Positions 13,841 through 28,461 of a DNA stretch of 64,000 nucleotides are shown here, piece by piece. A program made the translations under genes and the position numbers. Within the stretch, counting starts at the first letter, position 1, and each line of letters begins with the position of its first letter. The notes beneath the pieces are model-generated. The model did no database searches. It was not told the origin of the DNA and saw nothing but the letters and a program-made list of their open reading frames with translations. The stretch comes from Spirochaetia bacterium. Its GTDB lineage: Bacteria > Spirochaetota > Spirochaetia > B11-G9. The stretch lies in contig JAOZPU010000001.1 in assembly GCA_029932585.1 (NCBI GenBank), forward strand, positions 630 through 64,629, read 5' to 3'.

Positions 13841-15823
13841 TTGCTTCCAAATAATCTAAATCTATGTAATATTATAATTTCAGATTTGATCAATCTTGTC
13901 AAAGCTAGAAGTTTTCTTATTGAAGAAAAAAAGAAAAAAGGTTTAAATGTTCAAGTGATAAATAAAAAAATTAAATATAAATTTGAAAAAGCAATTAATT
14001 TTGGTAAATTAAGAAATTATGAAAAAGCAGCAGAGCTTTTTAATAGTATAATTAAAGAAACAGATGAGATTCCTGAAGCATATCTATATTTAGGCAGGAG
14101 TTATCATAGTTTAAATCGATTGAATGAGGCCGTCCCATTACTCAGGCATTACTTAACACTGGTTCCTAACTCTTCAATGGGTAATTTTTTTCTTGGAAGA
14201 TCTTTACTCTCCCTGGGTTTTGCTAAAAATTCAATTCCATATCTAAAAAAATCTGTAGAAGCTCACCCTGAATCTCTTCATGCAAATGGATTCCTTGGAG
14301 TTGCATATCTTAACGCAGGCCGTTCAGATGTGGCAATCAACTATTTGAGCACAGCCGCAGAATCCAGTACTGAGGGAACCGGGATATATAAAATATATTT
14401 AGGAACATTATTTTTAAGAGCTGTAAGTAATTTTAAAACCGGTAATATTGAATTAGCTTCTCAAATGTTTATTTTTTTAATTGATAATGATTTTAACAAT
14501 ATACTACCGTTTATCTATATGGGAATGATAGAAAGACAAAATCAAAATTACAAACAAGCCCTTTCATACTATGATCAGGCTCTAATATTTTCTCCTAATG
14601 ATAAATTACTCTTGTACAGAAGAGCTGTGCTCCTCTATAAAGTAGGTAATTCTCAAGGTGCAGTCGAAGAATTAAAAAAATTGGATATAGAACCTGAAAT
14701 AGATGAAAATATTTATCTGGCATATCAGTTTTTTAATACGAAAAAGTTTAATAAAGCATTGTACTATGGAAATATGGCGCTTCATAGTGATAATGAAAGT
14801 ATAGAATTACATCTGTTATTAGGTGAAGTAAATAGAGAATTAAATAAACTTGATCTTGCTGAAAATCATTATAGAAAAGCAATAAAACTTGATAGAACAA
14901 GACTTGAAGGAAGATATGGTTTATCACTACTTCTTTGGATGAAACATGATTATAAAGCAATGATAACTGAACTTAAAAAAATTAATGTTAGTGACCCTGA
15001 AAACAAAATAAGTTCTTATTATTCATCACTTTGTATGTGTAAACTTAATTATGAAACAGATACAACAATACCCTACATTCAGAATGAAATAAGAAATACT
15101 GAACCTGATTGTTATCTTTTTACAGCTTTGGGAGAAGAATATATTAAAGCTGATCTTAAACATCTTTCTGAAAAATGGTTTTTAAAGGCAATAACTGTAA
15201 ATAATGAGTTTAAAGACGCTCATATTAGTCTAATTAATTATTATAAAAGTATAGAAGATAATGAAAAACTTTTGGATTCCTACAAAAATTATTTAAATAT
15301 TTCTAATAATTTAGATATAAGTCTCGAATATATACATTTATTATATAAAAATAAATTTTATTTAGATACAATTAAGCAAATAAATAAAGTCTTACCCTCT
15401 ATCTCAACAAATATTAAACTTTTAAGATTACTTGGAAACTCTTATCGTTTTACAAAAAATTGGGATAATGCAATAATTAATTATCAACAAATATTGGCAA
15501 ATTCCCCCAATAATGAGGCTATATTACAATCTCTTGTTTATTGTCTGGATCATGCCGGAAGAAAGAAATCCGCTATTGAATTACTTGATAAAGCATTTGA
15601 TTATTTAAACTCTCCGTCACTAAATTTACAACTTATAAGAGGTGTTATGTATTACAAAAATAAACAATATGATAATGCTTTGAAAATTTTTAGAGAAACT
15701 TTGAATAAACGACCAAAGGATTGGCGAATTTATCACAATATAGGGATGATTTATAAAGCTAAGGGTATTGATGATTTTGCTGAACAGTTTTTTTCGAGAG
15801 CAAAAGAACACAAAAAAAAATAA
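13841..15823 (+). CDS. TPR-repeat protein; start codon uncertain.
   Basis: 660 aa with many 34-aa TPR-like repeats. The annotated ATG lies only 15 nt from the divergent purA start, so the real start may be internal, for example an in-frame GTG near 13955. Confidence 0.55.
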   Translation: MLPNNLNLCNIIISDLINLVKARSFLIEEKKKKGLNVQVINKKIKYKFEKAINFGKLRNYEKAAELFNSIIKETDEIPEAYLYLGRSYHSLNRLNEAVPLLRHYLTLVPNSSMGNFFLGRSLLSLGFAKNSIPYLKKSVEAHPESLHANGFLGVAYLNAGRSDVAINYLSTAAESSTEGTGIYKIYLGTLFLRAVSNFKTGNIELASQMFIFLIDNDFNNILPFIYMGMIERQNQNYKQALSYYDQALIFSPNDKLLLYRRAVLLYKVGNSQGAVEELKKLDIEPEIDENIYLAYQFFNTKKFNKALYYGNMALHSDNESIELHLLLGEVNRELNKLDLAENHYRKAIKLDRTRLEGRYGLSLLLWMKHDYKAMITELKKINVSDPENKISSYYSSLCMCKLNYETDTTIPYIQNEIRNTEPDCYLFTALGEEYIKADLKHLSEKWFLKAITVNNEFKDAHISLINYYKSIEDNEKLLDSYKNYLNISNNLDISLEYIHLLYKNKFYLDTIKQINKVLPSISTNIKLLRLLGNSYRFTKNWDNAIINYQQILANSPNNEAILQSLVYCLDHAGRKKSAIELLDKAFDYLNSPSLNLQLIRGVMYYKNKQYDNALKIFRETLNKRPKDWRIYHNIGMIYKAKGIDDFAEQFFSRAKEHKKK

Positions 15824-15880: not shown

Positions 15881-16426
15881 ATGGCAATAAAAGCATTAGA
15901 TCTTTTTCAGGCATTTAGAGATGGTAAACTACCAAAAAATGAAGGTTATATAGTTTCATCTTTTTTTAGTAATAGAAGTAAATATACAATATATGAAATT
16001 GTTGCTTACAGTGGTGTTAAAAGTATTTATGCAACAGCAGATGGAATAACTTTCCAAACAGATGGAAATAAATTGTATATTCTTGTAGAACCAGGATCAT
16101 TTTTTAAAAAATATGAAGAACCTTATCTAAGAGATAAGAATCATGTTATTCCACAGAGATTTGCTGAACTGGAAATATTTAATTCAAGCAATCAGACAAA
16201 AGTTATGGTGAGTAAAAATCCTTTGGTTACTTACTCTTCATTTACGGTTCTTAATCCCACTGGTGCTAATTTTTCTCTTGTTTTTTACAATCTTCCTGAT
16301 GTTCTTGATACATTGTCTACTTTCTTTATCGAATCTCTTAATAAAGAAGCAGGTGTACCAAAATTTGATGCAAGAAAAGCGACTGCAAAGATAATTGAAT
16401 CTGTCAAAAATTTTGGTCTTTGGTAG
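15881..16426 (+). CDS. Hypothetical protein (181 aa).
   Basis: The ORF is preceded by AGGAGA. I recognise no motifs. The downstream terminator supports it as a real transcription-unit end. Confidence 0.5.
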   Translation: MAIKALDLFQAFRDGKLPKNEGYIVSSFFSNRSKYTIYEIVAYSGVKSIYATADGITFQTDGNKLYILVEPGSFFKKYEEPYLRDKNHVIPQRFAELEIFNSSNQTKVMVSKNPLVTYSSFTVLNPTGANFSLVFYNLPDVLDTLSTFFIESLNKEAGVPKFDARKATAKIIESVKNFGLW

Positions 16427-16434
16427 GAATAATC

Positions 16435-16480
16435 CGTAGGGGCAAAAAAACTTTTACCCCTACGACGTAATTTTAATTAT
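16435..16480. terminator. Rho-independent terminator: perfect 8-bp stem CGTAGGGG/CCCCTACG followed by a T-rich tract.
   Basis: Read from the sequence; it sits between convergent genes. Confidence 0.6.
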
Positions 16481-19106
16481 TTTTTATTGTTTCCTGTGCT
16501 ACTGCCAGGAGAGCTATGGGAACAGAGAAGACACTGCATGATACATAGTCCAGTCCTGCATCCATACAAAATTTAATATTCTCTGGAACAGCTCCATGTT
16601 CACCACATAAACCCTTTGTAAGTCCTGGTCTTGTCATACTGCCTCTTCTAACGGCTGTTTTTACAAGCTCTTTAACGTGCTTATTAAGTTTAATAAAGGG
16701 ATTACCATCAATTATATCAAATAAGGTATAGTCAGGCATAAATGATGTGTAGTCATCTCTAGAAAGCCCAATGGTAGTCTGTGTGAGATCGTTAGTTCCG
16801 AATGAGAAAAAATCAGCATATTTAGCGATTTCTCCTGCCGCAAGTGCAGCTACAGGAAGTTCAATCATAGTACCAAATCGATAAGGTATAGCTGGAGCTT
16901 TAAGTTTCTTTCTAAGATCAAGTTCAATCTGTTTTAACCCTTTATAAGTCTGACCCTCAATTTTTTTACCATAAATAATAAGTTTTAATTCATCTTCATT
17001 CATGATTAAAGGAATCATAATTTCAGGTCGTACCTTAACACCTTCGCTTTTCAGCTTATAAATTGATTCAAAAATAGCTTCCATTTGCATTTCATATATT
17101 TCGGGATAGGAAACAGCAATTCTACAACCTCTATGTCCAAGCATAGGATTAAACTCTCTCAAATTATCCATATTCTCAGTTATTTCTTTTACAGTGACAT
17201 TTTTGGCATCTTTTTCATTTTTCATAAAATTTATAAAAAGCTGCATTTCATCTTTATTGTGAGGTAAGAACTCATGTAAGGGAGCATCAAGTAATCTTAT
17301 AGTAACTTCTTTTCCATCCATTGCTTTAAATATTTGATAAAAATCATCTTTTTGCATAGATTTAAGTTTTTTTAGAGCTTTGGTTCTTTCCTGAAATGTT
17401 TCAGAAATAATCATACGTCTAAAAACATTTATTCTTTTTGAATCGAAAAACATATGCTCGGTTCTGCATAAACCTATACCATCAGCTCCAAACTTAACAG
17501 CCAGATTAGCGTCATTTGCTTTATCAGCATTAACCCGAACATGAAAATTTCCTAAGCTGGATTTTATTATTTTAACAAATTCCAAAAGACCTGATTTTTC
17601 AGGATCTGGTTCTATTAGTTCTGCTTCACCAAAATAGATAGTAGGATCGCCATAATGAGGCACATTAAGTGTAATGATATCACCTTCTTTTACTATCTTT
17701 CCATTTATAGTTGCTTTATTACCTGTAACTTTTAAACTGTCTGAAACAAGAGATATTTTCCCATATTGTCTTGCAACTACAGAAGCATGAGCTGCATAAC
17801 CACCTTCTGCAGAAAGAACGCCTGTTGCTACTTCTATAGCCTTTACATCTTCTGCAAAAGTCGAATTCATACATAATATAAGCCTAGTGTCCAAACCCTT
17901 CTGCTGAGCAACCTTAAATGCATCAATAAGCTTATTTGTAGTAAAATAAACTCTTCCTATAGCAGCACCGGGAGCACCTGCTACCCCCCCTGAAACACTT
18001 TTAAAACCCTTAACTGAACTAGGTTTTATAATAGGATGGAGAATTTCGTTTAATTGTTCCGGTTTAACGGCATTAATAAGATATTCTTTCGTAATAACTT
18101 TTCGTTTGAAAAGATCCAGAAGAGTCTTTATATCAGATTGTGTTGATTTAGACATAAGAGGTCTTTGATCAATTAACCATACTCTTCCATCTTCTATGGT
18201 AAATCGTATGGATCTTATTTCTTTATAATGGTCTTCTACAGTCCTGGCTACTTTTACTAAATCTTTTAAAAAATTAGATCCAATTTTTTGTATATCTTTT
18301 CCCTTAGTTTCTATAGAATTAAACTTATTTTGTTCAAACCAGCCTGATAACTTATCATCTCCTGTAACAACATCCCTTGTAAAGAACTGTCCACTGGCAG
18401 AATCTTTGCCATAATTCCCATAAACCATAGGCTGAACTATTAAAGCCGCATCATCATCATCCAGTTCATCAAGAGACAACATAAAACTAATTCTTTTTAA
18501 TACAATTTCAAGCTGTTTGTATACATCAGAGTAAAAATCATCAGGAAGCAGTTTTTTATAATCAGCTATTATTTTTTTTATTTTCTCAGCTTTAATATTA
18601 CTATTAATATACTTAGTAATATCATAAATCTTTTTTGTCAGATTTTTAGAATCGCTATTTCTATTTTGCAGATCAGCAATTTTCTGTTCAATCTGAAGAT
18701 ACCCCTTAATCTGAAAAAGAATTTCATGATACCCAAAGTCTTCACCTACAAAATCTGTAAACCCACCTATTGTGTTATCAGTCAAACCAAAATTATGCAA
18801 TGCAGGATAATTAACAATGGCTAAATTGGGACTTATTACAATTTTGAGAAGTAATGGATTAGTAGTATCACCAAATACCTTTCCTGTTATTTTCTCACAT
18901 TTATTTATAAAAGATTTTATATTAGTGGAAATATTCTCACTTTCAAGATGAGCTGCAATCTTTGAATCCAAAATAAAACCAGGCAGTATGGGTAGATCCA
19001 GAGCTGCAAAGTCCATAGCTTCTTTCCCTCTTATTCCTAGTTTATCTAAAAGTTGTTGATTTTTTATATGACTGTTTCTGCTAAAAAAATGTATATTTTT
19101 TTTCAT
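16473..19106 (-). CDS. ppdK: Pyruvate, phosphate dikinase.
   Basis: 877 aa with N-terminal ATP-grasp, a central phospho-His domain and a C-terminal PEP-utilising TIM barrel with GGRTSHAA-like and CGE motifs (GLCGEHG). Confidence 0.95.
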   Translation of the reverse strand: MKKNIHFFSRNSHIKNQQLLDKLGIRGKEAMDFAALDLPILPGFILDSKIAAHLESENISTNIKSFINKCEKITGKVFGDTTNPLLLKIVISPNLAIVNYPALHNFGLTDNTIGGFTDFVGEDFGYHEILFQIKGYLQIEQKIADLQNRNSDSKNLTKKIYDITKYINSNIKAEKIKKIIADYKKLLPDDFYSDVYKQLEIVLKRISFMLSLDELDDDDAALIVQPMVYGNYGKDSASGQFFTRDVVTGDDKLSGWFEQNKFNSIETKGKDIQKIGSNFLKDLVKVARTVEDHYKEIRSIRFTIEDGRVWLIDQRPLMSKSTQSDIKTLLDLFKRKVITKEYLINAVKPEQLNEILHPIIKPSSVKGFKSVSGGVAGAPGAAIGRVYFTTNKLIDAFKVAQQKGLDTRLILCMNSTFAEDVKAIEVATGVLSAEGGYAAHASVVARQYGKISLVSDSLKVTGNKATINGKIVKEGDIITLNVPHYGDPTIYFGEAELIEPDPEKSGLLEFVKIIKSSLGNFHVRVNADKANDANLAVKFGADGIGLCRTEHMFFDSKRINVFRRMIISETFQERTKALKKLKSMQKDDFYQIFKAMDGKEVTIRLLDAPLHEFLPHNKDEMQLFINFMKNEKDAKNVTVKEITENMDNLREFNPMLGHRGCRIAVSYPEIYEMQMEAIFESIYKLKSEGVKVRPEIMIPLIMNEDELKLIIYGKKIEGQTYKGLKQIELDLRKKLKAPAIPYRFGTMIELPVAALAAGEIAKYADFFSFGTNDLTQTTIGLSRDDYTSFMPDYTLFDIIDGNPFIKLNKHVKELVKTAVRRGSMTRPGLTKGLCGEHGAVPENIKFCMDAGLDYVSCSVFSVPIALLAVAQETIKNN

Positions 19107-19120
19107 ATTATCCTCTATTG

Positions 19121-20122
19121 TCAGAAAAGATTGAGTATCTTATTAACTGGAAATTTCAGGAAGGATTCAAACATAATGCTTGCACCCTGCTTAAGATATC
19201 TCTGTAGTTTCGCTACATCTTTTATATTGTCTCCGGCTACTGCAAACAAAATAGTGCTTCCATGTTTTACTTTTCCCCATTTAAACAGTGAAGCAATTTC
19301 GTGTATCCGTTCACCATCATAATAAATATAAACATCTAATCCTGAATACTTTGTTTTATAACTTTCGATTATTTTCTTCCAGGCTTCAACATTCCCATTA
19401 TGAAAAAGTTCGTTAGAAACAACCACTGAATAATAAGGTGTAATTCTTTTTGGTTTTGTAAGAACCGGCTCCATTTTTTTTTGTACAGATTCATCCTGTG
19501 CAGCTTTAGTCGCTGTTTTTTTCCTGGATACATTTTTTTTAGGAGTGGAAACTATTTTTTTCTTTATTACCTTTTTTTCTAATAATTTAAATTTACCTTT
19601 GGACAATTCTGTAGGTGGATTTAATTTCTTTCCCTGAAGATACTTGAGTATTACTGAAATAGCTAAATTCGCTGATTTTATATTATTATCAGCTGAAAAA
19701 TTGCCTGCATAAATAGTAATAAGTTCATTTCGTTTAAAAGTGTGAATTGATTCAAAATGATTTTTATTTTTAGGGTTAATTAACATGGGACCTAAGTCAG
19801 GATGGTAATAAACCATAACAATATCAATTCCATTCCATTTTTTAGATGCATCAACAAGTATATCAAAGTTACTAATAGTAGTTGTCATATTGTGAGATTT
19901 ATATTGGTAATTTAATTTATCATATAAAATGGCATTTATTGAAGGAATAAGCTGATTTTGAGAAATTATTTTATCCTGTAACAGTTCATTAAGTGAATCT
20001 GCTACATTTTCATAATCCCCAAGAGTGCCAATAATATCCGATACAGTCTGAAAATGACCAAGTGCACTATTAAAACTTGATTTTGTTGAGAGATTTTCAA
20101 ACTCATATAAATGATTCGTCAT
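19121..20122 (-). CDS. Hypothetical two-domain protein with a Lys-rich linker.
   Basis: 333 aa. A central K-rich low-complexity segment is encoded by A-runs. The gene lies between ppdK and the CfpA-like gene, as the hypothetical TP0747 does in Treponema. Confidence 0.5.
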   Translation of the reverse strand: MTNHLYEFENLSTKSSFNSALGHFQTVSDIIGTLGDYENVADSLNELLQDKIISQNQLIPSINAILYDKLNYQYKSHNMTTTISNFDILVDASKKWNGIDIVMVYYHPDLGPMLINPKNKNHFESIHTFKRNELITIYAGNFSADNNIKSANLAISVILKYLQGKKLNPPTELSKGKFKLLEKKVIKKKIVSTPKKNVSRKKTATKAAQDESVQKKMEPVLTKPKRITPYYSVVVSNELFHNGNVEAWKKIIESYKTKYSGLDVYIYYDGERIHEIASLFKWGKVKHGSTILFAVAGDNIKDVAKLQRYLKQGASIMFESFLKFPVNKILNLF

Positions 20123-20137
20123 TTAAATACTCTCCTT

Positions 20138-20185
20138 AAAAAAAAGATCGCCCTGTGAAACAGGGCGATCAATAATATTTTTTGA
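20138..20185 (-). terminator. Rho-independent terminator: perfect 10-bp stem GATCGCCCTG/CAGGGCGATC with flanking A and T runs.
   Basis: Read from the sequence. It lies 3' of the 679-aa gene, between it and the 333-aa gene. Confidence 0.6.
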
Positions 20186-20187
20186 TT

Positions 20188-22227
20188 TTATAATGTTCTT
20201 AAGCCACCACTATTTTTTTTGGCTTTCTTTTTTGTTTTTCCTGTATCAACAACACCTTTTCTTTTTCGTGTTTTTGTAGCAGGGGCTTTATCTTTTTTAA
20301 TAGTAGTTGCAGGTTCATCTGCAGGAGTATTCAGCATATCAAGATACGACTGACCTTTATTTTTTTTAGATCCTTCTTCAATCTCGTCCAGTGCATTAGG
20401 ATCTCCAAAATGCTGATCAATGTCACTACGTACAGTTGATCTTCTTCTTGAGAAAGACGCAAATGCTGCATCCTGAAAACCTTTAGATACACCATTAAGG
20501 AACTCATTAAGTACGTTTGCCATACCATCCAATGTAGCTTTCTTTCTTTTAATAGAAGTAATGTCTACATCCAGAAGAATACCTGTCTGTATATGATAGG
20601 GATTTATCATATAATCAAACCTGTTAAATTCCTGTTCCAGGAACTCTAATCTTTCTTCCATAACACGTCGTTGCATTGGGTATTTATAACCATACATTGA
20701 CTGAAGTTTATCCTTCATAAGAACAAGTCGTTTCTTAACTTCATCTTTTTCAAAAAGATATGTTCTATTTCTTTCTTCAACTTCAGTTTCTGCAGCTTGC
20801 ATGAAAGAGATCTCGTTCCAAACTTTATCAACATCTTCATATACAGGATCATTTGATTTAAGTTTTATCTTTTTCTTAATTTTAGTTCTATAAACCTTTG
20901 CAAGATCTTCATAGTCAGCAACACGTTTAAAAAATTTGCTGTCAACGTATACCATATCAAGAACATCCCATAAATGCTGAACTTCAAGCTGAAATGCCGC
21001 AATTTGTACGTCATAAGCTTTCTGCTCTTCTACAAGCTGTGCATTATCATAATACTTCATTCTAATACTATATCGTTCATCAGGAAGTATATTTGGATCT
21101 GTATCTTCATATTCCCGTATAATCAATTCACGTCCATTTTTAAGGTTTTCAATATACTGATAACCCATTCTTGAAGTATCAAGTATAGATGTAATTGAAT
21201 TAATAGCTGTGTTATAACCCCGATTTCTAATATTCTCAAGATCAATAATCTTTTTAAGGTTTTCTCTAATATTAAGTTGATCAAACTCTTCAGGATCAAT
21301 TTCAGCTCGCAGCCCTTCAAGTCTGGTCATAAGTGTTTTTGCCATATATTTATAACGATTAGACTTTGCACTTTCAGCATCATCTGAAGTATGACTCTCT
21401 ACTTTTTTCATCTTCTCAAAGACAATTTCACTGTCTGCAAGTTCTTCGAGACCCTGATCAATACGATCATCTTTTAACTGATCAATTTCCTTGTCAATTA
21501 AGTCGATTATATTCTTTGCAATTAGATCTTTTATTAGATACTCAACTGTTACCTGATAATGGAATATAGGACTTATTAACTCAGAATCAAGTATATTTAC
21601 AGATAATTTTACTTCAGAAACAGTTTTTGGTTTCTTTAAATTATCTTTAAAAGCACATTTTACAACAGAATAAGCGTTTTCGCCCCTTATAAAAGCTCCA
21701 ACATCAGTTTTCTGACGTAATAATGAATTAGTAAGATTTTCGAGCTCATTAACACCTCTTTGTATATGCCCCTGGAGGTGTCCATACATGTTAACAATTG
21801 ATTTCTCAATTTCACCAGTATTAAACCTGTCCATTCCTCCAACTTCATCAAGAAGTGTAGCAATCTCTTTTGGTGTGTATCTTGTCAGAACTTTCATTTC
21901 CTCTCGGTCAACAAAATTTCTAACCTTCTTAATCATCTCATCTTCAGTGGTTACAATGTACCTATTGAACATGTTCTGATAGTTTTGGTTAAAGTAATTA
22001 TATACTTTTTCTTTTAAACCACCCATAACATCAAGTTCTTTCAAAACATCGTTTGGTAACTTGGTTGAAACGTGATTCATTACTTTGTCGACTTCTTCCT
22101 CTAGAAGATTGTCAACTTCTGCCTGCTGATCTCGACTCTCCTGGGCAAGGGAGTTTCGAGAACCCACCGCACTCCTCTTTTCCGGATGAAAGACCATCGG
22201 GCTTTTCGGTAGATCTATACTTCCCAT
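20188..22227 (-). CDS. Large charged coiled-coil-rich protein, possibly the cytoplasmic filament protein CfpA of Treponema-type spirochetes.
   Basis: 679 aa. Treponema pallidum CfpA is about 678 aa and its gene lies two genes from ppdK, as here, so the call rests on length and synteny. The first roughly 50 codons are GC-rich and codon-atypical, so the true start may be downstream ([11 protein letters not shown]...). Confidence 0.5.
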
Positions 22228-22293
22228 TACACTCTCCTTCGATTATGACTGTACTATAATAATATCAACATGTTGTTAAAAATGTAAAGCAAG

Positions 22294-22306
22294 TTTTTTT
22301 TTTTTT
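22294..22306. repeat. Homopolymeric T13 tract in the divergent promoter region between the CfpA-like and vWA genes.
   Basis: Counted directly from the sequence. Confidence 0.8.
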
Positions 22307-22366
22307 ACTTTTTTGCTTTAGCTGAAGAATCATACATGTTAGTATAGTCATTATAGAGGTAAAACC

Positions 22367-23482
22367 ATGAATAAAAAAGCTATTTTTATGTTTTTTTTAT
22401 GTTTTTTATTATTAAAGACCATTTTTACTTTATCAGCCGACCAAAGAGTTGGGAATATTGAAATTTATCTGGTTCTTGACAAATCTTCATCAATGATTGA
22501 AGAGATAGATTCTGTTAAGGAATATGTAACAGAATCTATTATTAATAAATTAGTTCTTGAGGGTGATTATTTTTTACTTGTTCCTTTCTATGGTAAGACT
22601 GATGAATCTTATAACGGATATATTAATTCAAAAATTGATATTACAAGGTTACAAAATAATATAAGTGAAATAGAAGCTGATGGCCTTTATACTGATATAG
22701 GCAATGCACTAAATTATCTTAGAAAAAATATTATTACTGAAAATGAATTGTCCAGAAAATATATGCTCTTAATAACTGATGGAAAACAGGAGGCACCTCC
22801 TGATTCGATCTTTTACAGTCCTGATGGTAGCTTTAATCATGAATTTTTAGCTAATACAAAAGAAATTCAGAAAAAAGGATGGAAAATTGTAGTAATGGGT
22901 ATTGGTACAAATACAGCAGCTAAAGAGATTGCAGAAGAGTTATCAGCTGGATATAAAAATGTATCAGAACTTTCCACAGCACAGGAAATTTCTGATACAC
23001 TGGATGATTTTTTAGGCAGATTTGATATAGTTTCTTTTAATAAAAATATCGAATTAGATAAAAATGGTATTGGCACTATAGATTTAGAAATTAAAGGTGA
23101 AGGTTTTTCTGAAATAAAGGATATTAAAATAAATGAAATACTAATGAATTATAATGATAATAAGAGTAACAACATTCTAAATACACCTTTTACATTTAAT
23201 ATTAACATTGATGAAACATTAAAAGTTTCGATCCCTGTGAATATAACTCCCCGGGATGATGAATATCCTGCTAATATTATTTTTGTTTTTGAAGGCGAAA
23301 ATGCTTTTTCTCCTTCTGTTATTAGTCTTAATATAAAAAATAATAAAGGAATTTCTTTTTATTATTATATAATTATAATTTTTGTGATATCTTTTATAAG
23401 TTATTTTGCTTACAGAATATGGCAGCGAAAAAGATTGGAGGACGATAACAATTCAAATGAATCAAAAAAAGGGGAAATTTGA
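22367..23482 (+). CDS. Exported von Willebrand factor A (vWA) domain protein with a C-terminal membrane anchor.
   Basis: 371 aa with a signal peptide and a complete MIDAS (DKSSS, a Thr in LYTDIGNAL, and ITDG). It has a C-terminal TM helix (YYYIIIIFVISFISYFAY) followed by a charged tail. Confidence 0.75.
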   Translation: MNKKAIFMFFLCFLLLKTIFTLSADQRVGNIEIYLVLDKSSSMIEEIDSVKEYVTESIINKLVLEGDYFLLVPFYGKTDESYNGYINSKIDITRLQNNISEIEADGLYTDIGNALNYLRKNIITENELSRKYMLLITDGKQEAPPDSIFYSPDGSFNHEFLANTKEIQKKGWKIVVMGIGTNTAAKEIAEELSAGYKNVSELSTAQEISDTLDDFLGRFDIVSFNKNIELDKNGIGTIDLEIKGEGFSEIKDIKINEILMNYNDNKSNNILNTPFTFNINIDETLKVSIPVNITPRDDEYPANIIFVFEGENAFSPSVISLNIKNNKGISFYYYIIIIFVISFISYFAYRIWQRKRLEDDNNSNESKKGEI

Positions 23483-24449
23483 GTATATTTCAAATTTTTT
23501 ATTAACAAATGATAATTTTATTTTAACTGCTCATGAAACACCCGATGGTGATGCTATCGGCAGTGAAAGTGCTATGTATTGTGCGTTAAAAGCTATTGGG
23601 AAAAATGTAATAGTAATAAATGCAGATTTAATGGCAGAAAAATATACCTTTTTAGATTACAATAATATTTTCAAGGTATTGGATGAAAGTAGTATTCTTC
23701 CTGAGGACATTGGAAAATATACATTAATTATCCTTGATACCAGTGATGTTGATAACATAGGTCAGGTAAAAGATATTATTCTTAGTAAAACTAAAAATCA
23801 CCTTATTATTGATCATCACGAATCAAAAGAAAATACAGAAGAAAATATACTTATAATAAGTGAAGCTTCTTCTACATGTGAAATTTTATACCAATTATTT
23901 GATTATTCCAACATAGAAATTAATTTCAATATAGCACAGGCTCTTTTTGTAGGTATTGTTTATGATACGGGATCATTTATCTACCCAAAAACAAGCGCTA
24001 AAACGTTTTCAATTGCGCATAAATTAGTAGAAAAAGGTGTTATACCAAATAATATATATGGTAGAATATATGAAAGTAATTCAGTCTCAGCTCTTCAACT
24101 TCAGTCAAAAGTTTCTGCCTCTTTAAAACTGTACTACAATCAACATGTTGCTGTTCAGATAATGCTCAAAGAAACTATAAAAGAATGTAATGCATTGTAC
24201 GAGGAAGCTGATGCAATAATAAATATACCTTTAAAAAGTAAAAGAATTAAAGTTTCAGTTTTTTTCAAAGAAAATACTGAAGGTATTCTTAGATGTTCCA
24301 TGCGGTCAAAAGGAAATATTGATGTTGCAGAAATTGCACAGTTTTTCAATGGGGGTGGCCATAAAACTGCAGCAGGTTTTAAAAGTAAATATCCCCTTGA
24401 TGAAATAATGGTAAAAGTGTTAAAAATGCTGGAAGTTTATTTTATCTAA
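23457..24449 (+). CDS. DHH/DHHA1 phosphoesterase (NrnA-like bifunctional oligoribonuclease / pAp phosphatase).
   Basis: It has the motifs HETPDGDAIGS, IDHH and GGGH. The likely start is MNQKKGKFEY, which overlaps the vWA 3' end by 26 nt. Confidence 0.8.
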   Translation: MNQKKGKFEYISNFLLTNDNFILTAHETPDGDAIGSESAMYCALKAIGKNVIVINADLMAEKYTFLDYNNIFKVLDESSILPEDIGKYTLIILDTSDVDNIGQVKDIILSKTKNHLIIDHHESKENTEENILIISEASSTCEILYQLFDYSNIEINFNIAQALFVGIVYDTGSFIYPKTSAKTFSIAHKLVEKGVIPNNIYGRIYESNSVSALQLQSKVSASLKLYYNQHVAVQIMLKETIKECNALYEEADAIINIPLKSKRIKVSVFFKENTEGILRCSMRSKGNIDVAEIAQFFNGGGHKTAAGFKSKYPLDEIMVKVLKMLEVYFI

Positions 24450-24487
24450 TTAAATACTTTAAAAAACTTCATCATCGGAGTAGTAAT

Positions 24488-26029
24488 TTGAGATACTCGC
24501 TAATTGTATTGTCACTTTTTATTGTATTTACATCCTGTAATAAGATTGAACAAACGGAAACTATTAATCCACAGGAAATAATCCCTGTATACAAGGGGAA
24601 TAACAGTTCAAATGATAAAGAATTATTAAATATAACAATAGATAAAGAGACAAAAGTTTCAAAGGTAACTTTAGATCCTGATGATTTCCTTATTGATTTA
24701 ATTGATACAAATCTTGATCTGGATAGTAATGATGAACAAATACTCATTGTAAAAAATAATATAAGTAATAATTCTCATGTAAGAGTTCTTGTTGCAGATT
24801 TTGATAACATTATAAACTCTTATTTTGTTTCCTGGGAAGGAATAACAGGTTCTGATAACATAAGATCACTTTCTGTTTCTCTAAAGGATATTACAGGAGA
24901 TCATAATCTTGAAATTGTATGTACCGGAACTGATCTTGATGGGAAAGAGACAATAAATATTTTTCGTCGAACTCCTTCACAGGATAGAATAGTTATTCAC
25001 TTTTCTGAAATTCTGAATTTGAGTGTCGATGGTAATATTGAAATAAAAGAGGAACAAAGGTCCCAGGCATATCAAACAGGAATTAGTAATGGTATAAGTT
25101 TTCCCATTACTGTCACTACTACAGATAAAACTTCTGAAAATATACTAGATATGATTAGAGAGACCTATTTTTGGAGAAATCAGGAAGATATATATAAATT
25201 AATTAGCGTAGATAAAATACCTGGAGATGATATTGAAAATAGTAAATTACGTGATCTCTATCGAGGCGATCGTAATTATTTTAAATCTTTCCTTAATGGA
25301 CCATGGATGTTGTCAAATTCAGAAAATAATTTATCTTATAATAATCCTATAGTATATTTTGATCCTGACAACAACCAGATTGTCTTTTCCAATCACGATT
25401 TTCAAGAAATATATTTGTGGGAAACTTCAAGTAAAACATTATCGAATACACTTCAAATAACATGTGAAAATGACCTTGTCCCATTTTTAGATGTTTCTTT
25501 ATCTGTTCGTATTCTTGATATTAATACCATAGGGTTAAAATTCAGGGATAATAGTATTCGTAATTCTAAATCTTCGGAAAATCAAATATGGACTGGAAAT
25601 TATTTCAAACTCAATACTGAAGTTCAAAAAGATTTAATTGGAGAATATAGATCAATTTCAAATAATTCAGATATTCCAGTTCTTTCCGGCTATTACAGGA
25701 GTGATACAGGAGATGAATTTTCTTTCAATTCGCCTAAATTTTCTTTAAAATCCGGAGATCAAACATATAATGGAGGCTTTTATCTATTTAACAATGGTTT
25801 AAAAATAGCTGAATTTAAGATGCTGGATGAAAACAATCTTGTTAAAGATATATTAACTTATAAATATGATTACTTTGAAGAAAAAAATGATACAGAAATA
25901 ATAAGAACTATTATTTTAATTCCTGGGGAACTAACCATAAAGGGCTTTATTCCATCAGGAGAGCAATTCATCAGATATATTCAAATAGAACAAATTGAAA
26001 GAAAAGAATCAGAAGAGCCGCTTTCCTAA
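24488..26029 (+). CDS. Hypothetical lipoprotein (513 aa).
   Basis: TTG start with GGAG at -8. The signal peptide carries the lipobox FTSC. No recognisable domains. Confidence 0.55.
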   Translation: MRYSLIVLSLFIVFTSCNKIEQTETINPQEIIPVYKGNNSSNDKELLNITIDKETKVSKVTLDPDDFLIDLIDTNLDLDSNDEQILIVKNNISNNSHVRVLVADFDNIINSYFVSWEGITGSDNIRSLSVSLKDITGDHNLEIVCTGTDLDGKETINIFRRTPSQDRIVIHFSEILNLSVDGNIEIKEEQRSQAYQTGISNGISFPITVTTTDKTSENILDMIRETYFWRNQEDIYKLISVDKIPGDDIENSKLRDLYRGDRNYFKSFLNGPWMLSNSENNLSYNNPIVYFDPDNNQIVFSNHDFQEIYLWETSSKTLSNTLQITCENDLVPFLDVSLSVRILDINTIGLKFRDNSIRNSKSSENQIWTGNYFKLNTEVQKDLIGEYRSISNNSDIPVLSGYYRSDTGDEFSFNSPKFSLKSGDQTYNGGFYLFNNGLKIAEFKMLDENNLVKDILTYKYDYFEEKNDTEIIRTIILIPGELTIKGFIPSGEQFIRYIQIEQIERKESEEPLS

Positions 26030-26089: not shown

Positions 26090-27118
26090 TTAGTAGATAG
26101 GGAATCCATCAAATCCTTTATTTTTTAATTTCAGTAATGTTTTTTCAATCTCTTCTGCTGAAGCTAAATACAAAATAACCTTATAATATTTAATATTATT
26201 AATTGTCTGTTCTTCTATTGTAGTAAAAAAACCGGAGTCTTGAAGATCTTTTGATAAATAATGAGCATTTTCCTGATCCCTAAATGATCCGGTTTGAATC
26301 ATAAAATTATGACTTAAATTAGTTTTTTTTATATCATCTTTTATAGTAGAAGTTATTTGAAAATCACTGTATTGTTTTAATAAACCAAATACAGTTAAAA
26401 TATCAGGTAACTCTTCAAACTTATTTGAAATTAAGCCGGCTTCCGGACTTGTTTTAAAATTTTCAATTATTTGCTTTTTAATTCTATTCATTTCTATTGA
26501 TTTAGAATTTGATTTAGCTATTAAATAAGATATGTATAAAGACTCAGGTGTAATTGAATATTCTAATATACTGTCAGAGTCATTTTTTGCGTTTAAAATA
26601 TTTAAAATAGTTTTTAAATTGTGAGCCTTCTCCAGAATATTTTGATCTAAACTAATGGAAGAAATTTCGTTTAACTGTGATTCAGCAAGATATAGATTAC
26701 CCTCCAGTATTAAAATTTCAGCAGATTTCAAAAGCATATGTGCATCAATCCCGTCAAGGAAGAGCAACGCTGATTTTTGATAGTATACCTGGGCATTGTG
26801 AAGATCTGAAGATAATTCATACATTTGTGCAATACTATTATACAAGATTTTTCTAGTATTTCTATCAGAAATGTTCTCAATATTATTTTCTAATATTTCA
26901 ATTATTGAATGGATATCACCATGAAGTTCTGAAACTTCCAAAAGTATCGATGAAAAATCTTCGGAATCATAATTATTTTTAAGCCAATTATTGTATAAGT
27001 TGATCGATTCTATATATTCACTATTACTGTAGGCTTCTCTGGCATTATCAATTTGCGAAAAAATTTGCGAACTTAATAGAAATAGAAGTACAACATATGT
27101 TATTTTTGTATTTAACAT
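26090..27118 (-). CDS. Exported SPOR-domain (peptidoglycan-binding) protein with an N-terminal TPR-like region.
   Basis: 342 aa with a signal peptide. The C-terminal ~80 aa (IQTGSFRDQENAHYLSKDLQ...YKVILY) matches the SPOR fold pattern. Confidence 0.6.
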   Translation of the reverse strand: MLNTKITYVVLLFLLSSQIFSQIDNAREAYSNSEYIESINLYNNWLKNNYDSEDFSSILLEVSELHGDIHSIIEILENNIENISDRNTRKILYNSIAQMYELSSDLHNAQVYYQKSALLFLDGIDAHMLLKSAEILILEGNLYLAESQLNEISSISLDQNILEKAHNLKTILNILNAKNDSDSILEYSITPESLYISYLIAKSNSKSIEMNRIKKQIIENFKTSPEAGLISNKFEELPDILTVFGLLKQYSDFQITSTIKDDIKKTNLSHNFMIQTGSFRDQENAHYLSKDLQDSGFFTTIEEQTINNIKYYKVILYLASAEEIEKTLLKLKNKGFDGFPIY

Positions 27119-28461
27119 TAAAAAACTTCACCTTTAAATGTATTACCATTAAGACTCATTAATTTTACATTCTTAAAAGTCCCAATATATTCTTTATTAC
27201 CAACAAAAACTACCATTTCATTTTTTTCAGTTCTTGCTAATAATTCCTTACTATTTTTTCTTGATACAGATTCAACTAATACCTGAACAGTTTGACCAAC
27301 TCTTTTTAATTTTTGATCTGTACTAATTCTCCTTTGGATATCTATTATTTCATTTAATCTTCGTAATTTTTCTTTATGTGCAATACTTTCCGGAAAAGTA
27401 AAAGCCTTTGTCCCCTCTCTTGGATTGTAATAATAGGTAAAAGCGTCGTTAAACTTAACTTCTTCCATTAATTCTTTTGTTAGTTCAAGATCTTCCAGTG
27501 TTTCTCCAGGAAACCCTATTAAAAGATCCGTTGTAATAGAAATATCTGGTATTTTTAGCTTCATTTTTTTGGAAAGTGTAATAAAATCAGATCTTGTATA
27601 TTTTCTATTCATTTTATGTAAAATGTTATCAGATCCATGCTGAACTGCAAGGTGAATATGACTGCACAATCTTTTATCGGAAGATATAAGATCTATTAAG
27701 TCTTCAGGAACATCCTTGGGATGAGAACTCATAAACCTTATCCATCCCAATTTATGTGTTTCTCTAAGAATTATTTTTAATAATTCAGAGAAATTAATAG
27801 TTTTATTTTCTGTTAAATCGTTATAAGTATAGGAATTTACATTTTGGCCAAGAAGTGTTACCTCTTTGACACCTTTTAATTCAAGCTTTTTTATTTCTTC
27901 AATAATTGACTCGGGAGATCGGGAAATTTCACGTCCACGAACATATGGAACTATACAATATGTACAAAAATTATTGCAGCCATGCATTATGGGAACCATC
28001 GCTTTAAAAGCATTTTCAGCAAGATGAATTTCCCGAAAGGTGTATTCACCAGCTGCGACAAGATTATCTGTCCAAATTTCATTATTATCCAGGTATTCAC
28101 TTAATTTTTCTTTTTCAAAATTTCCAATAACCATATCTACAGAGGGAGCTTTTTTTTGAATATCTCCTTTCAGACGTTCTGCCATACATCCGGTTATAGC
28201 AAGAGTGAAATCTTTAGATTCTTTTAGATGTTTATAGTATCCGATTCTTCCCCAAATTCTATTTTCTGCAGTCTGACGAACGGAACAGGTATTTAAGAGG
28301 ACAAAATCTGCATTTAATTCAGAATCTGCTTCTCTCCATCCTTTTTCTTTTAAATCTGCAATTATTGCATTTGACTCAGCTGTATTCATTTGACAACCAT
28401 AAGTCTCTATCCAGTAATACTTCAAATTTCTGTACCCTCTATTAGTGTCCTGATATACCAT
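27118..28461 (-). CDS. miaB: tRNA-i6A37 methylthiotransferase MiaB.
   Basis: It has the MTTase N-domain (YIETYGCQMN), the radical-SAM motif CNNFCTYCIVP and a C-terminal TRAM domain. It overlaps the LCP gene 3' end by 40 nt. An alternative TTG start at 28425 would give MKYYWIETYGC and a 4-nt TTGA overlap. Confidence 0.9.
   Translation of the reverse strand: MVYQDTNRGYRNLKYYWIETYGCQMNTAESNAIIADLKEKGWREADSELNADFVLLNTCSVRQTAENRIWGRIGYYKHLKESKDFTLAITGCMAERLKGDIQKKAPSVDMVIGNFEKEKLSEYLDNNEIWTDNLVAAGEYTFREIHLAENAFKAMVPIMHGCNNFCTYCIVPYVRGREISRSPESIIEEIKKLELKGVKEVTLLGQNVNSYTYNDLTENKTINFSELLKIILRETHKLGWIRFMSSHPKDVPEDLIDLISSDKRLCSHIHLAVQHGSDNILHKMNRKYTRSDFITLSKKMKLKIPDISITTDLLIGFPGETLEDLELTKELMEEVKFNDAFTYYYNPREGTKAFTFPESIAHKEKLRRLNEIIDIQRRISTDQKLKRVGQTVQVLVESVSRKNSKELLARTEKNEMVVFVGNKEYIGTFKNVKLMSLNGNTFKGEVF

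Follow-up and report, generated by a model that had tools for sequence, protein, structure and literature searches.

We report here that a 64,000-nt stretch of DNA (from here: the window) most probably comes from an uncultured marine bacterium of low GC content within the Spirochaetaceae and carries its chromosomal cfpA locus, where a 679-aa gene encodes CfpA, the cytoplasmic filament subunit of treponemes and their relatives (probability about 0.9). Loci of this kind are already known and this one is routine among them; a CfpA orthologue in a marine spirochete is ordinary. We observed the family memberships of the genes, a gene order conserved among related loci, a hairpin 3′ of cfpA and changed residues in a neighbouring PPDK-like protein; filament formation, the transcription units and any functional coupling of cfpA with its neighbours are inferred.

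In Treponema, the polymer formed by CfpA is a ribbon of filaments that lies just beneath the cytoplasmic membrane and runs along the entire cell in parallel to the periplasmic flagella, and T. denticola cells that had lost cfpA became filamentous, had condensed chromosomes and were no longer virulent (PMC3398590, PMC13398306, PMC2776988). The protein is said to be predicted to be rich in coiled coil (PMC2776988) and has been placed among the bacterial intermediate-filament-like coiled-coil proteins (PMC6599971). The tables for T. pallidum list two reverse-strand genes here, TP0746 as a 901-aa PPDK and TP0748 as the 678-aa CfpA (PMC3373638). TP0750 is a vWA protein, and tp0750 is co-transcribed with tp0751 (pallilysin) as a bicistronic operon (PMC7521688).

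Results

Gene set and gene order

An earlier note on this DNA had singled out four genes as a Treponema-type neighbourhood. All four (877, 333, 679 and 371 aa) are contained in the list of open reading frames of the window, at the coordinates and on the strands given in Table 1. They belong to a block of ten genes, which encode, in this order, a TPR-repeat protein, a 181-aa protein, the PPDK-like protein, the TP0747-family protein and CfpA and, beyond the divergent cfpA upstream region, the vWA, DHH, pallilysin-like, SPOR-domain and MiaB-like proteins. The family calls for the last two are the precomputed Pfam assignments of L082, a contig near-identical to the window. The order was kept in 80 examined Spirochaetia loci with a GC content of 32-66%, wherever the contig reaches, so the arrangement is not due to chance. 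CfpA is the most conserved protein within the block (70-91% identity); the 181-aa gene (44-87%) is a neighbour of the PPDK-like gene in most of these loci, and a vWA gene is found at the same position in nearly all of them (22-50%). Since DNA with 99.6-99.8% identity to the window was found in four independent assemblies, an assembly artefact can be discounted.

Table 1. Coordinates of genes and signals at the cfpA locus of the window.
Feature	Position	Strand	Basis and remarks
TPR-repeat protein	13841..15823	+	block edge; many TPR families match; position conserved
Conserved hypothetical protein, 181 aa	15881..16426	+	member of Spirochaetia synteny block
14-bp hairpin	16434..16465	.	between convergent PPDK-like and 181-aa genes; possible bidirectional terminator
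Non-canonical PPDK-like protein, 877 aa	16473..19106	-	swivel His H440 and PEP/pyruvate motifs intact; ATP-grasp site remodelled
TP0747-family protein, 333 aa	19121..20122	-	Pfam PF27497 TP_0747_N
Intrinsic-terminator-like hairpin	20138..20170	-	between cfpA and TP0747-like gene; 11-bp perfect stem, 7 G-C pairs, then U8
cfpA, cytoplasmic filament protein, 679 aa	20188..22227	-	NCBIfam NF040882
Candidate sigma-70-type cfpA promoter	22259..22288	-	TTTACA, 18-nt spacer, TATTAT, extended TG; consensus match only
Membrane-anchored vWA protein, 371 aa	22367..23482	+	PF00092 VWA 1.5e-10; divergent from cfpA; TP0750 position
DHH/DHHA1 phosphoesterase, NrnA-like	23457..24449	+	PF01368 and PF02272
Pallilysin (TP0751)-related lipoprotein, 513 aa	24488..26029	+	NF033751 372.8 (cut-off 150); PF18663 3.5e-16
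SPOR-domain protein	26090-27118	-	other block edge; weak precomputed Pfam SPOR in L082; position conserved
MiaB-like radical-SAM methylthiotransferase	27118-28461	-	UPF0004/Radical_SAM/TRAM in L082; position conserved; block edge

The CfpA protein

The identification of the 679-aa gene as cfpA, proposed earlier, is borne out by the NCBIfam equivalog model NF040882 ("cytoplasmic filament protein CfpA"), which is matched over its full length of 605 positions by residues 5-608 with 1169.6 bits (cut-off 500). Treponema CfpA (TP0748 and that of T. denticola), compared via this HMM and published tables, belongs to the same family (678 versus 679 aa; PMC3373638). Among 2827 homologues retrieved, the named CfpAs of Marispirochaeta aestuarii and Sediminispirochaeta smaragdinae are 78% and 76% identical to that of the window, and those of Spirochaetaceae MAGs 88-91%. 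The mean column identity in a 44-sequence alignment is 78%, and many positions occupied by Gly, Pro, Asn, His or Trp are invariant. The protein consists of an acidic conserved core (residues 1-608, pI 5.35) and a variable Lys/Arg-rich tail (609-679, pI 9.9), hence the Lys-rich tail noticed previously is real. A solved structure related to CfpA was not detectable by sequence; the AF2 model, of low confidence (mean pLDDT 48.6), is all-helical with helices of up to 56 residues.

The host lineage

The genomes nearest to the window are labelled Spirochaetaceae or Spirochaetales and the cultured Marispirochaeta has the whole block, in agreement with the spirochete placement suggested before. In the loci of Marispirochaeta and Sediminispirochaeta the ten-gene order (identical in the Marispirochaeta loci L005, L009 and L010) and the non-canonical PPDK signature (see below) are those of the window, whereas local GC is 45-54% versus 31% and the flanking proteins are just 33-67% identical.

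The GC content is 0.308 for the window and 0.315 for the four-gene region, which had been regarded as unusual for a filament-bearing spirochete. It is not, because the ten-gene order extends over loci of 32-66% GC; a local GC of 32-34% is common among CfpA-bearing Spirochaetia loci (L001, L002, L022, L028, L029, L048, L060). Likewise, CfpA cannot be called strictly spirochete-specific, as homologues named as such by NCBI occur in SAR324, Deltaproteobacteria and Lambdaproteobacteria MAGs, and CfpA alone is therefore no proof of a spirochete. That the contig itself stems from another cfpA-bearing phylum, of the SAR324 or Deltaproteobacteria type, is nevertheless highly improbable, given that their CfpAs are about 44-64% identical to that of the window, against 76-78% for cultured Spirochaetaceae and 88-91% for Spirochaetaceae MAGs, and that the three Marispirochaeta loci have all ten genes of the block, with the pallilysin-family lipoprotein among them, which the divergent loci do not.

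Expression signals

A ribosome-binding site, GAAGGAGAG, was read from the sequence 6 nt ahead of the cfpA ATG at 22227. Promoter-like matches such as the one in Table 1 were no commoner in the region than in shuffled sequences (57 versus 55.6). On the 3′ side of cfpA, the RNA of positions 20123-20187(-) folds with -20.1 kcal/mol (z = -5.1), a stability reached by 0 of 200 shuffles, and the ribosome-binding site of the TP0747-like gene directly follows the hairpin. The corresponding spacer (median 69 nt) folds with <= -16 kcal/mol in 79/79 related loci, about two thirds of which have a T5+ run there. The gap from the TP0747-like to the PPDK-like gene is 14 nt in the window (median 18 nt across related loci). 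For the hairpin at the other end of the PPDK-like gene the minus-strand tail is not T-rich, which makes its assignment as a terminator weak.

Judging from these signals, cfpA appears to be a separate and strongly expressed unit that has a sigma-70-like promoter, a strong ribosome-binding site and a stable hairpin plus U-run directly 3′. The TP0747-family and PPDK-like genes would probably be expressed at a lower level, via read-through or an internal promoter. The vWA, DHH and pallilysin-like genes are read in the direction away from cfpA.

Flanking genes of the block

The 371-aa neighbour is a vWA protein, as had been proposed: in addition to its Pfam match it has DxSxS at residue 38 and, further along, T and D residues as in a MIDAS-type site, as well as an N-terminal hydrophobic segment (3-25) and a C-terminal membrane span (about 326-353). 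For the DHH gene a likely ATG start yields 330 aa and a 26-nt overlap with the end of the vWA gene, and the near-identical contigs L081-L083 are annotated with a gene of this length. The DHH motif lies at residue 136 of the TTG-started reading frame; the NF053633 NrnA score is 114.8, below the cut-off of 350. The pallilysin-like protein possesses an N-terminal lipobox-like LFIVFTSC, and a HEXXH motif was not found in its 513 aa. The TPR-repeat gene is called as 645 aa in near-identical contigs, and the 181-aa protein matched no Pfam or NCBIfam family.

The PPDK-like protein

The 877-aa protein matches Pfam PEP-utilizers_C (2.1e-65), PEP-utilizers and, weakly, PPDK_N. It aligns over its full length with the canonical PPDK of C. 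symbiosum (PDB 1DIK/1KBL; E 1e-143), with which it shares the three-domain layout, the swivel His and the motifs RTEH, LDxPLHEF, GTMIE, FGTNDLTQ and CGEHG. In contrast, the SMPGMMD loop is missing and eight residues are changed (K22R, R92V, M103Y, D104P, R135F, D321S, E323R, Q335D). With 655.8 bits it falls below the TIGR01828 cut-off of 843.45; together with the absent ATP-grasp residues this speaks against the ordinary ppdK of the earlier note. The ancestral signature KRMDRDEQRH, intact or with a single residue changed, was present in 18 of 19 canonical PPDK representatives and missing in the 20 higher-scoring non-canonical ones and in P0299. Within 62 cfpA-linked Spirochaetia orthologues the ATP-grasp residues are replaced by nearly the same residues as in the window protein, H455 and the motifs RTEH, NDLTQ and CGEH are retained, and the catalytic His is invariant in all 62 and the window. 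Judged by its residues, the protein is a non-canonical PPDK-like protein that has kept the catalytic His and PEP/pyruvate site and lost the near-invariant ATP-grasp residues.

The TP0747-family protein and its linkage to cfpA

The gene between cfpA and the PPDK-like gene belongs to a family named after T. pallidum TP0747, as its position had suggested. In its basic product (pI 9.5), an N domain (about 10-180) is joined by a disordered Lys-rich linker (184-223) to a C domain (about 226-333) that is very conserved and carries the motif NELFHNGNVEAW; this motif includes His241, lies just ahead of helix 1 and is invariant in a 53-sequence alignment. In the predicted model, residues 231-314 follow the secondary-structure order and spacing of the phosphocarrier HPr (beta-alpha-beta-beta-alpha-beta-alpha), so this small domain resembles HPr in its predicted fold. 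At the sequence level, Pfam PTS-HPr matched 0 of 53 family members and hhalign against HPr gave a probability of <1%.

Unlike canonical PPDK genes, the window-type gene is always located after a TP0747-family gene. Among more distant members of the non-canonical clade, with 35-50% identity to the window protein, this was seen in 9/9, and the TP0747-family gene in turn follows cfpA in 8/8 divergent contigs with enough flank, whereas a canonical PPDK control locus had neither neighbour. The trio persists in SAR324-type loci whose other flanking genes all differ. It is kept even in L088, L098 and L099, where PEP-site motifs of the PPDK-like protein are lost, and in L097, where its catalytic His is gone. 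His241 is kept in 7/7 loci with an intact PPDK-like gene and lost in 2/4 with a degenerate one.

Discussion

The core of the earlier interpretation, a CfpA and TP0747 neighbourhood of spirochete kinship, holds; the oddity of the GC content, the restriction of CfpA to spirochetes and the ordinary ppdK do not. As in T. pallidum, a TP0747-family gene and a PPDK-like gene follow cfpA on the same strand, and vWA and pallilysin-family genes lie nearby, both on the far side of cfpA. The host, by contrast, is an uncultured, presumably free-living marine-sediment lineage of about 31% GC. TP0750 and TP0751 are polypeptides of roughly 23 kDa (PMC7521688), much smaller than their relatives in the window, which are not bicistronic because the DHH gene intervenes, and the TP0751 relative differs further in its lack of HEXXH. 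With such a host, adhesion to host tissue appears unlikely as the ancestral function of TP0750/TP0751-type genes.

By analogy with Treponema, the CfpA of the window would form a cell-length ribbon of filaments beneath the membrane. Typical coiled-coil heptad rods show low sequence conservation; the extraordinary conservation of CfpA appears to set it apart from such proteins. The grouping of CfpA with crescentin, FilP and Scc (PMC6599971) is matched by its all-helical, low-confidence model, but it differs from them in this conservation.

Regarding the neighbours, they may simply be conserved bystanders, the PPDK-like protein being the PPDK that works in glycolysis, an enzyme whose nucleotide site is atypical, and the TP0747-like protein serving an unrelated function. 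This is a possible, if somewhat doubtful, explanation: close relatives are named "pyruvate, phosphate dikinase" by PGAP and IMG, as is TP0746 in the T. pallidum tables (PMC3373638), the hairpin suggests a separate transcription unit for cfpA, and housekeeping genes often keep their long-range order within a class. However, it leaves unexplained the trio in SAR324-type loci, the TP0747-family neighbour in all nine clade members looked up and the wholesale replacement of near-invariant PPDK residues.

Alternatively, both proteins could be structural partners of the filament, with PPDK-like catalysis secondary or dispensable. They might correspond to the unidentified bridging and anchoring components of tomograms to which the title of Izard et al. 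2004 refers. The strict linkage to cfpA across Spirochaetia and SAR324-type loci, its persistence beside degenerate PPDK-like genes and the pairing of a basic, Lys-linkered TP0747-like protein with an acidic CfpA core are consistent with this. We nonetheless consider it unlikely, as the invariant catalytic His and, in the window protein, the intact PEP/pyruvate motifs argue for an active half-reaction.

A third, still more speculative and rather improbable hypothesis is an EI/HPr-like phosphorelay tied to the filament. The trio would then be one module in which the PPDK-like protein acts as PTS Enzyme I: PEP would phosphorylate the swivel His, and the HPr-fold domain (candidate His241), rather than AMP + PPi, would receive the phosphoryl group from the remodelled ATP-grasp domain, linking glycolytic flux to the filament. 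The gene for a PEP-utilising swivel-His enzyme beside a predicted HPr-like domain in which a conserved His precedes helix 1, the replaced ATP-grasp residues, the strict linkage and the partial co-loss of His241 point in this direction. Yet the co-loss is 2 of 4 (Fisher about 0.11; loci phylogenetically non-independent), and L098 and L099 keep His241 despite lost PEP-site motifs. His241 is offset by 2-3 residues from the HPr His15 equivalent, and the Arg17 equivalent is missing. In architecture the enzyme is a PPDK and does not have the helical HPr-binding subdomain of EIN. The HPr-like fold, one domain of a two-domain protein undetectable as HPr by sequence, comes from a predicted model and not a solved structure, and the model-to-HPr alignment is given without naming the matched domain of the TP0747-like protein.

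For the chromosomal cfpA locus of a marine spirochete, the less ordinary aspect is the constant company that cfpA keeps: a "PPDK" in which the ATP-site residues are missing and a small protein predicted to have an HPr-like fold.

CfpA and its low-GC host

The four genes named in the earlier note were recovered with identical coordinates in the list of open reading frames (ORFs), and its reading of the 679-aa product as the cytoplasmic filament protein CfpA was confirmed in a search against NCBIfam profiles. The equivalog model NF040882 ("cytoplasmic filament protein CfpA") matched this protein with 1169.6 bits, far above the cut-off of 500, and residues 5-608 corresponded to model positions 1-604 of 605. 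Searching 5.8 billion proteins returned 2827 relatives; named CfpA relatives were those of Marispirochaeta aestuarii (78% identical) and Sediminispirochaeta smaragdinae (76%), and the Pfam family PF27473 (CfpA_C) is precomputed on all close homologues. The exact protein is already present in public databases. Several homologues in NCBI nr and UniRef carry the name "cytochrome C oxidase subunit II", which looks like a propagated misannotation.

A putative coiled-coil nature of CfpA is repeated in the literature (PMC2776988; PMC6599971). In an alignment of 44 sequences mean column identity was 78%, with numerous invariant Gly, Pro, Asn, His and Trp residues, a conservation so high that we infer it to be unlike that of ordinary heptad rods. 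The AlphaFold (AF2) monomer model, computed with 44 homologues, was all-helical and of low confidence (mean pLDDT 48.6), and a PDB sequence search yielded no solved structure at E ≤ 1. The core of the protein is acidic (pI 5.35) and the variable tail, residues 609-679, is rich in Lys and Arg with a pI of 9.9; the remark that the protein is Lys-tailed is therefore correct. In Treponema pallidum, cytoplasmic filaments are located just beneath the cytoplasmic membrane and extend over the whole cell length, parallel to the periplasmic flagella (PMC13398306), and a T. denticola cfpA mutant displayed filamentation, chromosome condensation, less attachment and loss of virulence (PMC3398590). We assume that the CfpA of the window plays the treponemal filament role, in which case it would assemble into filaments under the inner membrane. 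The CfpA finding itself adds little, the family being described and possessing its own NCBI naming model.

The assignment of the host to Spirochaetota was upheld by a locus scan that took one genome per species and found 539 loci: the labels of the nearest ones are Spirochaetaceae or Spirochaetales, and Marispirochaeta has the full gene block as well. The closest loci belong to Spirochaetaceae or "Spirochaetes" metagenome-assembled genomes (MAGs) from cold-seep, deep-sea and Guaymas samples (L001, 91%; L002, 88%; L003, 84%; L004, 81%), followed in the identity ranking by Marispirochaeta, a member of the Spirochaetaceae. The window DNA is 99.6-99.8% identical to contigs of four independent assemblies. 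Its GC content is 0.308, and 0.315 in the region of the finding. Such a low value had been regarded as unusual for a CfpA bearer, which did not hold: the nearest relatives L001 and L002 have a local GC of 33% and L022, L028, L029, L048 and L060 one of 32-34%, all with cfpA, and metagenomes commonly contain low-GC spirochetes with CfpA. Brachyspira or Borrelia, suggested as a source by the low GC, were rejected because the closest matches by genome are to Spirochaetaceae MAGs and to Marispirochaeta.

The window represents housekeeping chromosome, with purA, guaA, NAD synthase, folD, map, tpiA, pgk, gap, phoH, uvrA and ispG, and the Rfam search of it returned one tRNA-Gly and no further match. 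A mobile element or horizontal island was rejected in view of the housekeeping genes, including gap-pgk-tpi, and the flat GC. Two very large ORFs lie elsewhere in the window (Table), the shorter without Pfam match and the longer with matches only to Fn3_assoc and CHB_HEX_C_1 near residue 400.

Table. Positions of the features discussed, in the window or in related loci
Feature	Sequence	Position	Strand	Product
181-aa gene	window	15881-16426	+	181 aa
PPDK-like gene	window	16473-19106	-	877 aa
TP0747-like gene	window	19121-20122	-	333 aa
Spacer between cfpA and next gene	window	20123-20187	-	
cfpA	window	20188-22227	-	679 aa
vWA gene	window	22367-23482	+	371 aa
Pallilysin-like gene	window	24488-26029	+	
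vWA to pallilysin-family segment	window	22367-26029	+	
Very large ORF	window	33403-38298	-	1631 aa
Very large ORF	window	53062-56454	-	1130 aa
PPDK-like gene, motifs lost	L088	6001-8649		
PPDK-like gene, motifs lost	L097	551-3172		
PPDK-like gene, motifs lost	L098	6001-8604		
PPDK-like gene, motifs lost	L099	6001-8595		
TP0747 N domain ORF	L098	4880-5413		
TP0747 C domain ORF	L098	5562-5891		
Gene directly upstream of cfpA	L085	200-2938		912-985 aa
Gene directly upstream of cfpA	L093	162-3029		912-985 aa
Gene directly upstream of cfpA	L095	88-3045		912-985 aa

A conserved gene order around cfpA

Ten window proteins were compared by tblastn with 80 Spirochaetia loci. The order TPR, 181-aa, PPDK-like, 333-aa, CfpA / vWA, DHH, pallilysin-like, SPOR and MiaB-like was kept in these 80 loci wherever the contig reached, at local GC contents of 32-66%. 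The 333-aa protein belongs to the Pfam family PF27497 (TP_0747_N), precomputed for P0121, a protein 100% identical to it, and for every homologue listed. The 181-aa gene has no family match; it adjoins the PPDK-like gene across the Spirochaetia block with 44-87% identity and is missing from SAR324-type cassettes.

The resemblance to the T. pallidum order TP0746-TP0750, proposed in the earlier note, was indirectly borne out because the gene next to cfpA is a PF27497 member, the reverse strand of T. pallidum carries both TP0746 (PPDK, 901 aa) and TP0748 (CfpA, 678 aa) (PMC3373638), and the vWA protein TP0750 shares a transcript with tp0751, pallilysin (PMC7521688), matching the vWA and pallilysin-family genes of the window. 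There are differences from T. pallidum, however. In the window a DHH/DHHA1 phosphoesterase gene intervenes between the vWA and pallilysin-like genes, and both proteins are far larger than their ~23-kDa treponemal counterparts. The vWA protein has a VWA HMM match and a DxSxS motif at residue 38; with its hydrophobic N-terminus and predicted C-terminal membrane span, "exported" is a reasonable description. The pallilysin-like protein scored 372.8 against NF033751 (cut-off 150) and contains a lipobox-like FTSC; the HEXXH motif, also searched for, is absent from it. Genes of the vWA and pallilysin families, which in T. pallidum are regarded as factors of host interaction, are conserved next to cfpA in an apparently free-living marine spirochete.

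Upstream of cfpA we noted TTTACA, an 18-nt spacer and TATTAT with an extended TG, followed by the ribosome-binding site GAAGGAGAG; in a promoter scan of the region, promoter-like matches were no commoner than in shuffled sequences. The spacer between cfpA and the next gene contains an 11-bp G+C-rich hairpin followed by U8 (-20.1 kcal/mol, z = -5.1). The equivalent spacer folds stably in 79/79 related loci, where a U-run usually follows the hairpin, and the gap between the TP0747-like and PPDK-like genes is short (median 18 nt). Expression of cfpA would probably be high, with transcription terminated or attenuated ahead of the tightly coupled TP0747-like/PPDK-like pair, and the hairpin, conserved throughout the class, may determine by termination or attenuation how much CfpA is made relative to its partners.

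A remodelled PPDK paralogue

The name ppdK given to the 877-aa gene stood in part: the product is PPDK-like, but it is not a canonical PPDK. It aligns over the full length to C. symbiosum PPDK (E 1e-143), H440 corresponds to the swivel residue His455 of that enzyme, and the motifs RTEH, LDAPLHEF (LDxPLHEF), GTMIELP (GTMIE), FGTNDLTQ and CGEHG are kept, including those of the PEP/pyruvate domain. Yet it scored only 655.8 against TIGR01828 (EC 2.7.9.1), under the cut-off of 843.45, Pfam PPDK_N covers only residues 266-325, and the ATP-grasp site is replaced. The replacements in C. symbiosum numbering are K22R, R92V, M103Y, D104P, R135F, D321S, E323R and Q335D, while R337 is kept; these replacements hardly vary among 62 cfpA-linked orthologues, some of them from Treponema-labelled MAGs.

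Catalytic roles of the ATP-grasp residues R92, M103-D104, R135, D321, E323, Q335 and R337 were reportedly described by Ye and colleagues in 2001. The contact of Lys22 with the gamma-phosphate is cited in PMC4844700, and our literature search on PPDK ATP-grasp residues returned nothing beyond this statement. A search of 1.84 billion cluster representatives with the PPDK-like protein yielded a graded series of matches. Of the 19 examined representatives that keep K22 and R92, 18 have both the SMPGMMD loop and either KRMDRDEQRH or a variant differing at one residue, the exception being protein P0321; conservation in canonical PPDKs is thus shown directly. The canonical signature is lacking in 20 higher-scoring representatives and in protein P0299.

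The cassette beyond Spirochaetia

Gene neighbourhoods were inspected on the contigs of ten divergent non-canonical PPDK-like representatives, 35-50% identical to the window protein. In eight of them (L085, L087, L089, L091, L093, L095, L098 and L099) a CfpA_C gene is followed by a TP_0747_N gene and then by the PPDK-like gene, the order also found in the 80 Spirochaetia loci as far as contigs permit; a second CfpA_C gene directly follows the PPDK-like gene in four of these eight. In locus L088 the TP_0747_N gene precedes the PPDK-like gene, and cfpA is absent within 6 kb, and the contig of L097 is too short to judge the cassette neighbours. The other flanking genes differ across all divergent cassette loci, and the canonical PPDK control, L096, has neither a TP0747-family nor a cfpA neighbour.

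NCBI names relatives of the divergent CfpA proteins in MAGs labelled SAR324, Deltaproteobacteria and Lambdaproteobacteria. Neither the family nor the gene trio that comes with it is therefore limited to Spirochaetota, and CfpA cannot be called spirochete-specific. Such annotated homologues were seen for L087, L089, L098 and L099 and for the proteins P0432, P0449, P0452, P0470 and others, often as paired paralogues flanking the TP0747/PPDK-like pair. In three lineages a 912-985-aa protein without Pfam match is encoded directly upstream of cfpA and may be a further cassette member there.

The PPDK-like genes of L088, L097, L098 and L099 lack RTEH, NDLTQ and CGEH, and in L097 the catalytic His is replaced by Tyr. 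The motif-losing gene still adjoins a TP0747-family gene, and its product looks like a pseudo-enzyme.

A predicted HPr-like domain in the TP0747-like protein

No mention of TP0747 was found in our literature search, and searching PDB sequences with the TP0747-like protein gave nothing at E ≤ 1. In its AlphaFold model (pLDDT 76.8) a disordered linker rich in Lys connects two domains, both modelled with confidence. Residues 231-314 are predicted to form an open-faced beta-sandwich, beta-alpha-beta-beta-alpha-beta-alpha, and in the model the order and spacing of elements match HPr closely. The conserved His241 lies in the motif NELFHNGNVEAW, invariant over the 53-sequence family alignment A2, just before helix 1, that is, 2-3 residues ahead of the predicted helix 244-258. 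His241 is a candidate N-cap residue of this modelled helix and a candidate phosphorelay acceptor.

At the sequence level, 0/53 family members matched Pfam PTS-HPr (PF00381) at E ≤ 10. An hhalign comparison of the C domain and N subdomains with seven HPr/NPr/Crh sequences, of which the E. coli one was verified, was not significant (probability 0.4%, E 0.15), and an internal duplication of N subdomain and C domain was unsupported. In L098 the N and C domains are encoded in two separate ORFs, consistent with independent modules or a frameshift.

His241 is kept in 9/11 divergent loci, comprising 7/7 with intact catalytic motifs in the PPDK-like gene and, among the four with decayed motifs, L098 and L099; it is lost in L088 and L097. 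This pattern of co-loss (2/4 versus 0/7) is not significant and is suggestive only; the loci are non-independent.

Functional interpretation

The most far-reaching reading, at a probability of roughly one in four, is that the cfpA, TP0747-family and PPDK-like genes constitute one ancient functional cassette common to Spirochaetia and SAR324-type bacteria, in which the PPDK-like protein is a dedicated paralogue acting in an Enzyme I (EI)/HPr-like relay or as a pseudo-enzyme. A dedicated functional link of the PPDK-like and TP0747-like proteins with cfpA is plausible. The ATP-grasp site of the paralogue would have been converted to another use, and together with the HPr-fold domain of the TP0747-like protein it would drive a phosphorelay of the Enzyme I/HPr type from PEP; where the catalytic motifs have decayed, it would persist as a filament-bound pseudo-enzyme. 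A structural, pseudo-enzyme role for the cassette partners is a serious rival, since the cassette persists in several lineages that have lost the catalytic motifs. A true EI/HPr-like phosphorelay is a minority hypothesis.

At its core the earlier finding holds, and it is an ordinary one: a known family in a context that is likewise known and deeply conserved. More notable are the two constant companions of cfpA, the remodelled PPDK paralogue and the protein with a predicted HPr fold, and it is this context that could matter. The strict linkage of cfpA with a PPDK paralogue that has lost the canonical nucleotide site and with a predicted HPr-like domain protein, and the persistence of the trio outside spirochetes, lead to a specific hypothesis that could be tested in T. 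denticola, which is genetically tractable. If it is true and extends to T. pallidum TP0746, the assumed PEP-to-pyruvate enzyme of that organism would not be a standard PPDK. This would bear on those T. pallidum metabolic reconstructions that treat TP0746 as a normal PPDK.
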